Notes: a model not told the origin generated them from the letters alone. A stretch of DNA of 64,000 bases from an uncultured Acidobacteriota bacterium (GCA_963827515.1 CAWHBF010000024.1:30902-94901), one strand, 5' to 3'. Positions 7,656-16,324 are shown, counted from the first letter of the stretch. Translations and numbers: made by a program.

Positions 7656-8424
7656 TTACACGGACGGCGCCAACGCGTTTTCTTTTTGGGTACTCGGGGC
7701 GGCTCTGTCAGGGTCAGCAGTAGAGCCACACAGTATCTGCAGCGCGCGCACGCGTTCAGTCGTCACGCGGCCCGTTCGGCCTCCCTCGCACGCCGCTCCC
7801 CGCACGCCGGCGATATCTGCGCCGGCATCGCGCACGAATCGCAAGATCATCCGCCTGGAGTCTTCCGGCGACGGCCACGAGCAAGCCAGCCTCGTGTGCA
7901 CCTGCGATCCACGCGGAAAGTTCAGGCTGGGACACCAGTTCGCGCAGGCCGGGCCCGCGTTTATCAGCTGTATCGAGGAGCACGCCCCTCGCGCCCGCTC
8001 TAACGGCTGCTTCGGTTAGCGCGTCAGGGTCCAGACTTCCCACCACCTGGGCGTCCGCATAGGCGACCGCTACGACACCGCATCGGTCAGCGCTGCTTGC
8101 GGCCGCGCCACGGACCGCTGCCGACAGGAGTGACACCGCGCGTTCGATGCTCGAGGTCCCGGCGAACCCGACCTTGACCAATCCAGTGCCCGTGCTGGCG
8201 TATGCGCGGGCCATCCCCTCGATCGTCGCTTCGTCCTCCGCATCGCCGAGCGCTGCGGTGACGAGGTGCGCGGCGGGCGTGACGCGACGGATGTCGAGGA
8301 GCACCGGGATCGATACCGCGCCAAGAGGCCCGGACGCCGGGTTCTTCGCGTCGATGATATCGGCGCCGCCGGCAAGAGCCGCATCTGCCTCGTGCCCACT
8401 GAGCACGCTCACCAACAGTCTCAT
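7656..8424 (-). CDS. (5-formylfuran-3-yl)methyl phosphate synthase-like protein (MfnB/DUF556 family), one frameshift near 7850
   Basis: MRLLVSVLSGHEADAALAGGADIIDAKNPASGPLGA.. matches the MfnB-type N-terminus. The C-terminal part GADIAGVRGAACEGGRTGRVTTERVRAL is in the frame of ORF 7656..7901. Confidence 0.65.
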
Positions 8425-8443
8425 CGTAAAACCCATGCGTCAC

Positions 8444-8616
8444 GACAGTCCGCGCAGGCTGAAGCCTGCGCTCTACGTTCCGACGAGACAGTCCGCGTAG
8501 GCTGAAGCGATTTGCGTTTCGCCGTAGAGCGCACGCTTCAGCGTGCGCGTGTCCGCGGAGGCCAAAGCCTCCGCTCTACGCCGAATCGGAAAGCGGTCCA
8601 AAGCCTGCGCTTTACG
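8444..8616. repeat. REP/MITE-like nested-palindrome element, copy A (inverted relative to copies B-D)
   Basis: Contains gcgcaggctgaagcctgcgc, gtagagcgcacgcttcagcgtgcgc and gcggaggccaaagcctccgc hairpins. Shares more than 80% of its core with 40804-40959, 52698-52847 and 54624-54740. Confidence 0.8.
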
Positions 8617-8728
8617 GCCGGTCGGGAGCCTCATCGTCAGGTGCGCGCACCACGAGACGATGAACGGCCGGTGTATCGCGCCATCGGAGTCATTTGATCC
8701 GCGAAGAAGGTACCATGTTTCTCCGAAG

Positions 8729-9502
8729 ATGACAGACGCTGGACTCGGGTCGCTCTCTGGCCGCGGCGTGCTCGTGACGGGGGCGTCGAGCGGCATCGGC
8801 CGCGCGATTGCGCTCGCCTGCGCCGAGCAGGGGCGGACGTCGCGCTGACGTATCGAAGCAACGAGGAAGGTGCGCGCGAGGTCGAACGTCAGGTTCGAGG
8901 CCTCGGCCGTCGCGTGACGGTACCTGCGGGCGGACGTCTCCGATCAGTCGTCGGTCCGCGCGTTGGGCTCTGCCGCACGCCTGGCGCTCGGACAGATCGA
9001 CGTCTGGGTGAACAACGCCGGCGCGGATATCCTCACCGGCTCCGGCGCGACGCTCACCGACATCGAGAAGCTGGATCTCCTTCTCGCCGTGGATCTGCGT
9101 GGCACGATGCTCGCTTCGTGGCAGGCGGCGGAGCTGCTCGGCGCCCAGGAACACGGCGGGGTGATCATCAACATGAGCTGGGACCACGTGCTCACCGGCA
9201 TGGGTGGACGTAACCCTGAGCTCTTCGCCGCCGTGAAGGGTGGCGTGCTCGCGTTCAGCAAGTCGCTCGCGCGCTCGCTGGCGCCGCGCGTGCGCGTGAA
9301 TGTCATCGCTCCCGGTTGGATCGGCACCGCCTTTGCCTCGGCCGCGGACGAGCGCAAGCGACACGCCATCGCGGAGGCCACACCGCTCAAGCGGTGGGGC
9401 ACACCTGACGACGTCGCCGGTGCCGCCGTCTTCCTGGCCTCGCCCGCGGCAGGCTTCATCACCGGACAGACGATTCTCGTGGGCGGTGGAGTGGTTATGT
9501 GA
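8729..9502 (+). CDS. SDR family oxidoreductase (possible pteridine reductase), two compensating frameshifts
   Basis: VLVTGASSGIGRAIALACAEQG; middle segment GADVALTYRSNEEGAREVERQVRGLGRRVTV is in another frame (shifts at the G-run 8830-8833 and at CC 8923-8924). Then LRADVSDQSSV..IDVWVNNAG...; C-terminal ..GRWGTPDDVAGAAVFLASPAAGFITGQTILVGGG. Confidence 0.8.
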
Positions 9503-14623: not shown

Positions 14624-14790
14624 ACATCGTCGTTCACGCTTCTGGCTTCTCCGTGCTCGGTTCGTGTTCAGGTTCGACAGTGCCGCGAATCTGCGAACTC
14701 GCGAACCGAGAACCGCGAACTCGGAACTGCGAACCGAACGTGAACACGAACCGAGCAGAAAGAACCAAGAAGCGTGAACGACGAGTTTCT
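14624..14790. repeat. long imperfect inverted repeat (about 50-bp arms) built of GAAC/GTTC-type roughly heptameric words
   Basis: Left arm 14627-14676 is tcgtcgttcacgcttctggcttctccgtgctcggttcgtgttcaggttcg. The reverse complement of the right arm 14736-14785 is tcgtcgttcacgcttcttggttctttctgctcggttcgtgttcacgttcg (about 44/50 identical). The centre carries cgcgaac/cggaac repeats. Confidence 0.85.
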
Positions 14791-14792
14791 TC

Positions 14793-15359
14793 ATGATTGT
14801 TGAGACCATTGTCACTAGCGTGTCTGCGGACGGCGCCGTCAATTGCGCCCCGATGGGTGTCGAATGGGGTGACACCACGATCGTCCTCAAGCCGTTTCTC
14901 GACACGGTGACGTACCGCAATCTGGTGGCGACCGGCGCCGCCGTGGTGAATCTCACCGACGATGTCCGAGTGTTTGCCCGGTCGGCGATATCGAACCCCG
15001 TCTATCCCACGGTGGCGGCGGAGGTGATCCGGGGGGTGGTGCTCGCCGGCTGCTGTTCGTGGCGGGAAGTGGAAGTGCGTTCGGTCGACAGTACGCCGCC
15101 CCGGTCACGGATCGAGACCGAGGTCGTTCATCAGGGCGTCAGGCGTGAGTTCATCGGCTTCAACCGCGCTCGCCACGCTGTGCTCGAGGCCGCGATCTAT
15201 GCCACCCGGCTTCATCTCCTGCCGCGGGCGTTCATCGACAGCGAGCTGGCACGGCTGCAGGTGATCGTCGACAAGACGGCGGGCTCGGACGAGATCGAAG
15301 CGATGGTGATGCTCACCGACTACGTACGTGCCTCACCGGGCGACTCGAGCCCTGCATGA
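14793..15359 (+). CDS. DUF447 family protein (methanopterin-pathway associated)
   Basis: MIVETIVTSVSADGAVNCAPMGVEW.. matches the DUF447 N-terminus. 188 aa, followed by an ATGA overlap with the next gene. Confidence 0.65.
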   Translation: MIVETIVTSVSADGAVNCAPMGVEWGDTTIVLKPFLDTVTYRNLVATGAAVVNLTDDVRVFARSAISNPVYPTVAAEVIRGVVLAGCCSWREVEVRSVDSTPPRSRIETEVVHQGVRREFIGFNRARHAVLEAAIYATRLHLLPRAFIDSELARLQVIVDKTAGSDEIEAMVMLTDYVRASPGDSSPA

Positions 15360-16324
15360 TCGATCGGCAGGAGGTTTTTGTCGAAGCGTCAGCGCGTTTG
15401 CACTTTGGCGTCCTCGACCTTCGGGGTGCGCGGGGTCGATGGTTTGGCGGCATTGGTGCGGCGGCGCCAGGCCCGACGTTGCTGGTGTCGGGGACGCCGG
15501 CCGATGCGCTGGAGGCGGAAGGCCAGGATGCTGAGCGCGCTGCCGAGTATGCCCGGCGCTTCATGGCCTATCACCGTGTCGAGGGCGGTGTCCGGCTACA
15601 CGTGCACCGCGCATTGCCGCAGCATTCCGGGCTCGGGTCCGGCACGCAGCTCGCCCTGGCCGTCTCGCGGGTGATTGCCGAGTTGTACGGCATCGAGTCG
15701 GACGCGCCCGCGCTGGCGCGGGCCTCTGGACGCGCGCGACGCTCCGCCGTCGGCACCTGGACCTTCGCCGGCGGCGGCCTTGTCGTCGAAGGTGGACGCC
15801 GACGCGGCCGAGACGACTGCGGCCCCTTGCTCGCCCGCCTGCCGTTTCCAGCGTCCTGGCGTTGCGTCGTGGCCGTTCCCGACTCGCTGCCGGGCGTCAG
15901 CGGCAGCGACGAGGAGGCGGCGTTCGAGGGGCTCCCGTCGCCGTCGGAGCGCGATGTGGAACACGTCGCCCATCTCGTGCTGATGGCGCTCCTCCCGGCT
16001 GTCGCGGATGCGGACATCGACACGTTCGGCGCCGCGCTGACGGAGATTCAAGAGGTCACCGGCCGTTGGTTCGCTGCCGTGCAAGGTGGCACGTTTGCGC
16101 CCGGGAGCGAGGCGGTCCTGCGTACGATGCGCGACTTCGGTGCATCGGGGGTGGGCCAGAGTTCCTGGGGACCTGCCGTGTACGGGATCGTGGACGGCGC
16201 GGACGCCGGCGCGCGACTGGCCGACCTCGTGCGCGGCGTATCGGACCACCCGTGCGCGGTGTACGAGGGCGCCTTTCCCAGCCGCGGTGCCCGTGTCAGG
16301 CGTGGGCCTCATGAATCGGTCTGA
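15356..16324 (+). CDS. beta-ribofuranosylaminobenzene 5'-phosphate (RFAP) synthase-like GHMP-fold protein
   Basis: ..ARLHFGVLDLRGARGRWFGGIGAA..; GHMP motif LPQHSGLGSGTQLALAV; ..SSWGPAVYGIV..; 322 aa. Confidence 0.7.
   Translation: MIDRQEVFVEASARLHFGVLDLRGARGRWFGGIGAAAPGPTLLVSGTPADALEAEGQDAERAAEYARRFMAYHRVEGGVRLHVHRALPQHSGLGSGTQLALAVSRVIAELYGIESDAPALARASGRARRSAVGTWTFAGGGLVVEGGRRRGRDDCGPLLARLPFPASWRCVVAVPDSLPGVSGSDEEAAFEGLPSPSERDVEHVAHLVLMALLPAVADADIDTFGAALTEIQEVTGRWFAAVQGGTFAPGSEAVLRTMRDFGASGVGQSSWGPAVYGIVDGADAGARLADLVRGVSDHPCAVYEGAFPSRGARVRRGPHESV

Follow-up and report, generated by a model that had tools for sequence, protein, structure and literature searches.

What does a string of pterin and p-aminobenzoate (pABA) genes do in the genome of a soil acidobacterium? 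The question is raised by a gene cluster at positions 7756-16324 of the 64,000-nt stretch GCA_963827515.1 CAWHBF010000024.1:30902-94901, the whole of which we call the window. The host is an uncultured soil acidobacterium of the Vicinamibacterales, with a genome of 35 contigs that is 97.5% complete. An earlier note on this DNA had described a methanopterin-type pterin biosynthesis cluster with its own pABA supply, and our analysis points the same way, given both the family match of its RFAP synthase (RFAP, beta-ribofuranosylaminobenzene 5'-phosphate) and the presence of tetrahydromethanopterin (H4MPT)-dependent enzymes elsewhere in the genome. With a probability of roughly 85%, we read the cluster from its sequence as a cassette for biosynthesis of H4MPT, or of its dephospho variant, together with an adjoining methanofuran or methylofuran gene; it would serve formaldehyde oxidation by enzymes encoded on other contigs and was likely acquired by an old lateral transfer.

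In the pathway that we propose, PabB and PabA, probably with PabC, would turn chorismate into pABA, and RFAP synthase would join the pABA to phosphoribosyl pyrophosphate (PRPP). The dihydropteroate synthase (DHPS)-like protein should then join RFAP to 6-hydroxymethyl-dihydropterin diphosphate, so adding the 6-hydroxymethyl-dihydropterin unit. DUF447, and probably also a short-chain dehydrogenase/reductase (SDR) and a pterin-4a-carbinolamine dehydratase (PCD), may carry out later redox steps on the pterin or ribitol part, and the divergent MfnB-like gene would start the furan moiety of the partner cofactor, methanofuran or methylofuran. Fae, MtdB, Mch, Ftr, and archaeal-type FwdA-C with a selenocysteine (Sec)-containing FwdB would oxidize formaldehyde to formate or CO2. 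The formaldehyde could come, for example, from the pyrroloquinoline quinone (PQQ)-dependent alcohol/methanol dehydrogenases of this genome.

RFAP synthase condenses pABA with PRPP, yielding RFAP, CO2, and pyrophosphate, and this is the first committed step to H4MPT. Gene identities were assigned from an open reading frame (ORF) listing and from hidden Markov model (HMM) profile scans (Pfam and TIGR/NCBIfam) with curated cut-offs, and these support the last gene of the cluster as a predicted beta-RFAP synthase. Its product scored 157.9 bits with the RFAP-synthase model TIGR00144, compared with 24.5 bits for homoserine kinase and 21.4 bits for shikimate kinase. Clustering of this GHMP-fold protein with ordinary kinases, which had been named as a possible refutation, was not seen: the protein passed the family cut-off, and its tree consisted entirely of RFAP synthases. 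In the enzyme of M. thermautotrophicus, D19 and R26 are needed for pABA binding, as established by mutagenesis (PMC6787355). The equivalent residues here, D21 and R28, are likewise 7 residues apart, and both are at least 90% conserved in an alignment of 25 sequences.

In archaea and methylotrophic bacteria, RFAP synthase is accompanied by DUF447, DHPS-like, and DUF556-like genes. The DHPS-like protein of the cluster had only 21 bits to solved DHPS structures in a PDB search, which adds nothing about its function, and the genuine FolP sits apart on contig C30. DUF447 is a flavin-reductase-like split-barrel protein whose PDB matches are solely uncharacterized structural-genomics entries (107 bits to 3B5M). 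At least five natural fusions of DUF447 to RFAP synthase, each of ~520 amino acids (aa), were found among metagenomic representatives (P0182, P0157, P0188, P0246, and P0251), which ties DUF447 to the opening steps of H4MPT synthesis. The MfnB-like protein passed the PF04476 cut-off of 22.4 bits by a wide margin and matched M. jannaschii MJ1099 (4RC1) with 102 bits; the D-x-K, K-V-G, and L-D-T-x-x-K motifs align, and their Asp and Lys residues are presumably catalytic. Its gene, known as "orf21" in methylotroph islands, is transcribed divergently from the operon, and an opposite-strand homolog lies upstream of the SDR gene in 8 of 10 relatives' loci, the two others being G015, where the contig ends, and G046.

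The one-carbon role of the cluster had been drawn from its cofactor genes alone. This is accurate for the window, where fae, mtdB, mch, and fhc are indeed missing, and the genome itself adds much to it. Profile searches of all contigs for the fae, mtdB, mch, ftr, and fwd families found single copies of Fae (PF08714) and MtdB (PF09176), adjacent on C23, and of Mch (PF02289) and Ftr (PF01913) on C34, where Ftr is accompanied by a fused FwdA-FwdC (TIGR03121 and TIGR03122) and by FwdB (TIGR03129). The complete absence of H4MPT-dependent enzymes, which would have spoken against a methanopterin cluster, was thus not borne out. Near Mch on C34 are MptN-like, MfnF/orf1-like (TIGR03123 above cut-off), MfnD-like, MfnE-like, and 6-pyruvoyltetrahydropterin synthase (PTPS) genes, and two PQQ-dehydrogenase genes in the genome are above the TIGR03075 cut-off. 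The PTPS/QueD-family gene (C34:23111-23617, L006:7111-7617, minus strand) belongs to the mch-mptN cluster, a placement also kept in Gemmatimonadota loci, and might be the source of the 6-hydroxymethyl-dihydropterin unit instead of FolB.

The pABA branch is also specific to the cassette. The genome has two chorismate-binding enzymes, the PabB of the cassette and a second one that we considered as another PabB and rejected, as it scores above the trpE cut-off and lies in a trpE-G-D...B operon on C25. (The trpE_most model also gives the cassette PabB 390.8 bits, under its cut-off of 517.7.) The cassette PabB is thus the sole PabB of the genome, and its orthologs track the cluster among relatives, both of which uphold the claim of an own pABA supply. 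Full-length orthologs with 67 to 77% identity occur in eight other RFAP synthase-positive genomes among the 60 relatives searched, a count that, like the genus count given below, includes the unpublished genome G026, on which nothing else here depends. Broken pieces were seen in G036, a contig-end copy in G004, and a fragment in G024. The pab genes, so, belong to the cassette and not to the core genome. In about half of the other genomes, this query matched TrpE alone; many Vicinamibacterales genomes that lack the cassette thus gave no PabB-like protein (G002, G003, G005, G011 to G014, G016, and others). In two genomes, G010 and G046, pabBA is missing from the cassette. As this sole PabB coexists with FolP, folate synthesis must draw on these pab genes as well. 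The alignments to the relatives' PabB proteins begin at residue 24, and the true pabB start is probably near 11640.

The third pab gene is less secure. The earlier note called it pabC; a class-IV aminotransferase is indeed encoded there, and its identity as a lyase rests on position, with no NCBIfam model passing its cut-off (178 bits for branched-chain aminotransferase [BCAT] and 139 for aminodeoxychorismate [ADC] lyase). Its best PDB matches are BCATs at 142 bits, followed by ADC lyases at 103 and 98 bits.

How did such a cassette come to be in this lineage? Its nearest homologs are labeled Vicinamibacterales or Acidobacteria, in agreement with the Acidobacteriota-like context suggested before. 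Within the family, RFAP synthase was found in 10 of 36 other genera, and its distribution across Vicinamibacterales is patchy. Ten Vicinamibacterales genomes share this gene order, and among species-representative genomes a scan found the order MfnB (opposite strand), SDR-PCD-DHPS-like-pabB-pabA-(pabC)-DUF447-mptG in at least 25 metagenome-assembled genomes (MAGs) of Gemmatimonadota. A Longimicrobiales MAG, a "delta proteobacterium" MAG, and another Vicinamibacteria MAG have similar strings, of which some lack pabB or the SDR. In Thermoleophilia, SDR-PCD-DHPS-like lies on the opposite strand near DUF447-mptG-MfnB; in Hyphomicrobium, the PCD gene is beside mptG; and two gammaproteobacterial islands end in pabB. 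Linkage to downstream genes was seen in G046, where fwdB(Sec) is ~2 kb from mptG, and in the Acidobacteriota MAG locus L049, which reads mch-mptN-PTPS-MfnB-SDR-PCD-DHPS-like-DUF447-mptG.

A phylogeny of the RFAP synthase, proposed in the earlier note as a check, was built as a quick maximum-likelihood tree with Shimodaira-Hasegawa-like approximate likelihood ratio test (SH-aLRT) support and midpoint rooting. The protein nests within a Gemmatimonadota RFAP clade: the 15 Vicinamibacterales sequences form a clade (SH-aLRT 90) inside a Gemmatimonadota-dominated clade of 46 rows (SH-aLRT 100), next to Gemmatimonadaceae (SH-aLRT 96), while other Acidobacteriota and proteobacterial methylotrophs branch elsewhere. 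The cassette is inherited as a unit, and this nesting, together with the patchy distribution, suggests that it arrived by an old lateral transfer.

Table 1. Genes of the cluster in the window and selenocysteine-related features on other contigs
Feature	Position	Strand	Supporting matches
MfnB-like 4-(hydroxymethyl)-2-furancarboxaldehyde phosphate (4-HFC-P) synthase	7756-8436	-	PF04476, 171 bits
Classical SDR	8729-9502	+	adh_short_C2, 130 bits for C-terminal part
PCD (COG2154)	9574-9933	+	PF01329, 93.6 bits; NF002017, 98.8 bits (cut-off 80)
DHPS-like (orf20/MptH type)	9933-11417	+	DUF6513, Pterin_bind, and PterinBD-DUF4346 domains; TIGR00284, 197 bits
PabB, aminodeoxychorismate synthase component I	11571-12995	+	TIGR00553, 373.7 bits (cut-off 328.4)
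PabA glutamine amidotransferase	12992-13693	+	GATase, 188.6 bits; TIGR00566 trpG_papA, 227 bits (cut-off 121)
Class-IV (fold type IV) pyridoxal phosphate aminotransferase, pabC by position only	13712-14623	+	PF01063, 185 bits
DUF447 (orf19 type)	14793-15359	+	DUF447_N and DUF447_C domains
Beta-RFAP synthase (MptG), predicted	15356-16324	+	TIGR00144, 157.9 bits (cut-off 113.5); GHMP N and C domains
Archaeal-type FwdB	C34:59593-60990 (L007:13593-14990)	-	N-terminal CxxCxCxC 4Fe-4S motif, in-frame TGA; then fused FwdA-FwdC and Ftr
tRNA-Sec	C23:29941-30035		

The coordinates of the cluster genes are collected in Table 1. All nine genes named before were recovered in their places by the ORF listing and the HMM scans, and the three stop/start overlaps were exact: TGATG at 9931-9935 (PCD/DHPS-like), ATGA at 12992-12995 (pabB/pabA), and the overlap at 15356-15359 (DUF447/RFAP synthase). 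Beyond the cluster, an Oar-like TonB-dependent receptor gene (CarboxypepD_reg/OMP beta-barrel) at 16833-20400 of the window is apparently split across several overlapping frames.

The SDR and PCD genes bear on the last step of H4MPT synthesis, the reduction of dihydromethanopterin (H2MPT). A check of the genome for the reductase found neither DmrA nor AfpA/DmrB. For DmrA, there is no dihydrofolate reductase (DHFR)-family (PF00186) match in the genome. For AfpA/DmrB, TIGR02699 finds none in this genome (G000) or in seven other cluster-bearing relatives, and tblastn with two bacterial AfpA sequences gave no match in the genome. Two small PF02441 proteins that we considered as AfpA are both UbiX, and a third PF02441 match is CoaBC. 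The same TIGR02699 model does detect AfpA in Burkholderiales, Thiobacillus, Chloroflexi, a gammaproteobacterium, and another Acidobacteriota MAG, and it found none in 14 SDR-PCD genomes outside the Vicinamibacterales relatives. AfpA and SDR-PCD never occurred together in the genomes searched, but AfpA was present in just 6 of 17 genomes without SDR-PCD at the fetched locus, so that their mutual exclusion is suggestive only. As an observation on folate, the DHFR step is also without a candidate gene in this genome, although FolP is present.

The SDR-PCD pair occupies the slot that afpA has in Proteobacteria, between orf20 and orf21. By inference only, the pterin-reducing step could fall to the SDR, perhaps aided by PCD. 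The SDR had been proposed as a possible pteridine reductase. The protein is a classical SDR, of a cluster-specific subfamily, and there is no convincing match to a PTR1, FolM, or TmpR model. The pteridine-reductase and TmpR models score 96 to 142 bits, far under their cut-offs, and the FabG and glucose-dehydrogenase models score higher. In addition, Phe replaces the catalytic Tyr in 26 of the 34 orthologs, whereas the Lys and a Trp-Asp just past the Ser position vary little or not at all. PCD has the canonical HHP motif and adjoins the SDR and DHPS-like genes also in relatives and in Gemmatimonadota. Its canonical role is unlikely, as the 97.5%-complete genome has no match to the aromatic amino acid hydroxylases (PF00351), which also eliminates the pair as a pterin-recycling system for phenylalanine hydroxylase. 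On what PCD or DUF447 might do in H4MPT synthesis, our literature search gave nothing beyond mention of a gene island, "pcbD-mptG."

Several observations weigh against our reading of the cluster as a laterally acquired H4MPT cassette. Several archaeal-trained equivalog models score under their cut-offs: NF040726 gives the RFAP synthase 183.7 bits (cut-off 328), TIGR00284 gives the DHPS-like protein 197 bits (cut-off 256.65), and the NCBIfam MfnB equivalogs give 123 to 125 bits. No known dihydromethanopterin reductase was found, which leaves the last step of synthesis without an established enzyme. The class-IV aminotransferase is not separable by sequence from branched-chain or D-amino-acid aminotransferases, and its gene is in the cassette in just 3 of 10 relatives, being absent from most of them, though it is also found in Gemmatimonadaceae loci. 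A single transcript is made less certain by gaps of 150 to 220 nt before pabB and ~170 nt before DUF447, and a promoter and terminator scan of 7400-17000 found nothing above shuffled controls, which leaves the operon boundaries unset. For the direction and donor of the transfer, the basis is a quick midpoint-rooted tree. Finally, alignment to three relatives shows that the SDR gene in this assembly has lost 1 nt near 8823/8824 and gained 1 nt near 8922, which breaks its reading frame.

This last point raises the idea that the cassette is decaying here, with the SDR a true pseudogene and the pathway partly or wholly nonfunctional in this genome though working in relatives. The two indels and the in-frame stops would be expected in that case, and the presence of RFAP synthase in just 10 of the 36 other genera (G026 included) would mean a pathway that is often lost. 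We find this improbable. The indels restore the frame, and the ~33 codons between them still encode good SDR sequence in the shifted frame; the SDR is intact, at ~256 aa, in eight relatives; and the other eight cassette genes, like fae, mtdB, mch, ftr, and fwdA-C, have open, conserved reading frames. Split genes are also met elsewhere in this assembly, apparently the TonB-dependent receptor gene noted above and, for example, the PQQ dehydrogenases at C1:27423-29059 and C23:4384-5909, which are in two or three frame pieces. Since these point to assembly indels, the two compensating SDR indels are probably an assembly error rather than the mark of a pseudogene. Elsewhere in the assembly, the ATP-grasp (MfnD-like) ORFs at C34:27800-28225 (L006:11800-12225) and C23:36969-37583 (L005:7970-8584) look N-terminally truncated compared with their profiles and may be further assembly frameshifts.

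The FwdB encoded on C34 raises the question of the direction in which the pathway runs. It has ~360 bits to archaeal FwdB/FmdB structures, compared with 53 bits to the FhcB of Methylorubrum extorquens. Its in-frame TGA falls at the Cys118/Sec Mo/W-ligand position, is followed by His, and aligns with the Cys/Sec of 8RJA, 5T5I, and 9SFI. The TGA is kept in three other genera (G025, G046, and G017), and a 7-bp hairpin 21 nt after it is identical in all four genera, with flanking codons that vary. Cys forms of this FwdB type occur in a same-genus genome (G001), another Acidobacteriota MAG, and gammaproteobacterial MAGs. The genes for tRNA-Sec, selA, selB, and an AIRS/SelD-like protein are directly beside fae-mtdB (C23:29941-36619, L005:942-7619), and this adjacency links the selenocysteine machinery to the one-carbon genes. 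A FwdD-like gene is ~20 kb away and scores 78 bits, under its cut-off of 175. FwdB has been treated as an archaeal protein (PMC7331816 and PMC13188914), and a B subunit of the Fhc type no longer has the Fe-S domain or the Cys ligand (PMC6926001). The FwdB here retains both the metal-ligand position and the 4Fe-4S motif and is thus not an FhcB scaffold; this suggests, as a prediction, CO2-forming oxidation at the metal site rather than hydrolysis to formate.

Such a redox-competent, archaeal-type FwdB, which combines a 4Fe-4S motif with Sec at the metal-ligand position, might also run reductively, so that the H4MPT and methanofuran enzymes assimilate CO2 or formate through a Fwd-type dehydrogenase instead of oxidizing formaldehyde, and in methanogens the Fwd enzyme does reduce CO2 (PMC7331816 and PMC6926001). 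Here, however, Fae and an NAD(P)-type MtdB, adjacent in the genome, typify the oxidative route of bacteria, the genome has PQQ alcohol/methanol dehydrogenases, and no electron-donating polyferredoxin or Hdr partner adjoins the fwd operon. A reductive direction is therefore, in our judgment, quite unlikely. That the RFAP synthase-like enzyme instead serves secondary metabolism by forming a C-glycoside, like ForT in formycin synthesis, or forms some other aryl-ribosyl product is very improbable: its nearest solved structures are indeed ForT and a protein that bears the name RFAP synthase (~72 bits each), but it passes the RFAP-synthase family cut-off and retains the Asp and Arg of the pABA site, its gene is translationally coupled to DUF447 and lies alongside the DHPS-like and pab genes, mch, ftr, and fwd are linked to the cassette in relatives, H4MPT-dependent enzymes are present in this genome, and HMM scans of the window found no natural-product genes nearby.

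If the cluster is an H4MPT cassette serving formaldehyde oxidation, the SDR and PCD could have a larger meaning. We put forward tentatively, as an idea more apt to fail than to hold, that SDR-PCD is a third, non-homologous means of forming or maintaining the tetrahydro pterin of methanopterin in Vicinamibacterales, Gemmatimonadota, and Thermoleophilia, replacing DmrA and AfpA/DmrB. In this scheme, H2MPT (or quinonoid H2MPT) would be reduced by the SDR, PCD would dehydrate the 4a-hydroxy adduct formed in air, and the pathway would end in a Sec-containing, redox-active, archaeal-type formylmethanofuran dehydrogenase and not in the Fhc hydrolase.

Taken together, these predictions would place an H4MPT/methanofuran pathway of formaldehyde oxidation, with synthesis of its cofactors, in Vicinamibacterales, an abundant acidobacterial order of soils, and they portray the cofactor genes as a self-sufficient cassette that travels with its own pABA route. 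Acidobacteria were not among the phyla listed in a 2016 survey of the pathway (PMC5020050), and our literature search found no paper placing the H4MPT pathway in Acidobacteria. Two leads follow from the analysis, namely, the SDR-PCD pair, which may take the part of the missing last reductase of H4MPT synthesis where lineages lack DmrA and AfpA, and the bacterial FwdB proteins that retain the metal site, some of them with selenocysteine.

The operon itself is ordinary for one-carbon specialists, and its architecture is not unique. The fusion of the pABA and methanopterin branches, which the earlier note had singled out, recurs widely in Gemmatimonadota and Vicinamibacterales, and the linkage of pabB has already been published (PMC3615186). 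That paper describes the Methylosinus trichosporium islands orf19-orf20-afpA-orf21-orf22 and pcbD-mptG and, citing Kalyuzhnaya 2005, pabB as "commonly associated." The islands of proteobacterial methylotrophs (M. extorquens and M. trichosporium) share with our cluster the DUF447, DHPS-like, MfnB-like, mptG, PCD, and pabB families, as well as the downstream Fae, MtdB, Mch, and Ftr (PMC3615186). They differ in that the genes here form one co-directional string with pabB-pabA(-pabC) inserted between the DHPS-like gene and DUF447, in that SDR-PCD stands where afpA sits there (with neither AfpA nor DmrA found in this genome), and in an RFAP synthase identity of just 37 to 44%. Furthermore, the proteobacterial FhcB is an inert scaffold, whereas the FwdB here retains its 4Fe-4S motif and Sec ligand (PMC6926001).

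The closest counterpart is in soil Gemmatimonadetes, whose MAGs carry the tetrahydromethanopterin (THMPT) pathway and its biosynthesis genes (Butterfield et al. 2016, PMC5103831). The operon order is identical and the proteins are 55 to 79% identical, whereas the host phylum here is Acidobacteriota, and the cassette here lies apart from the mch and fwd clusters, with no xoxF neighbor visible in the window. Compared with the archaeal pathway (RFAP synthase MJ1427, DHPS-like MJ0301, and MfnB MJ1099 of M. jannaschii, and FwdABCD), the families are homologous. In the acidobacterial version, pABA would come from chorismate via PabBA(C), Fae and MtdB are of bacterial type, FwdA and FwdC are fused, and the FwdD-like gene is ~20 kb away.

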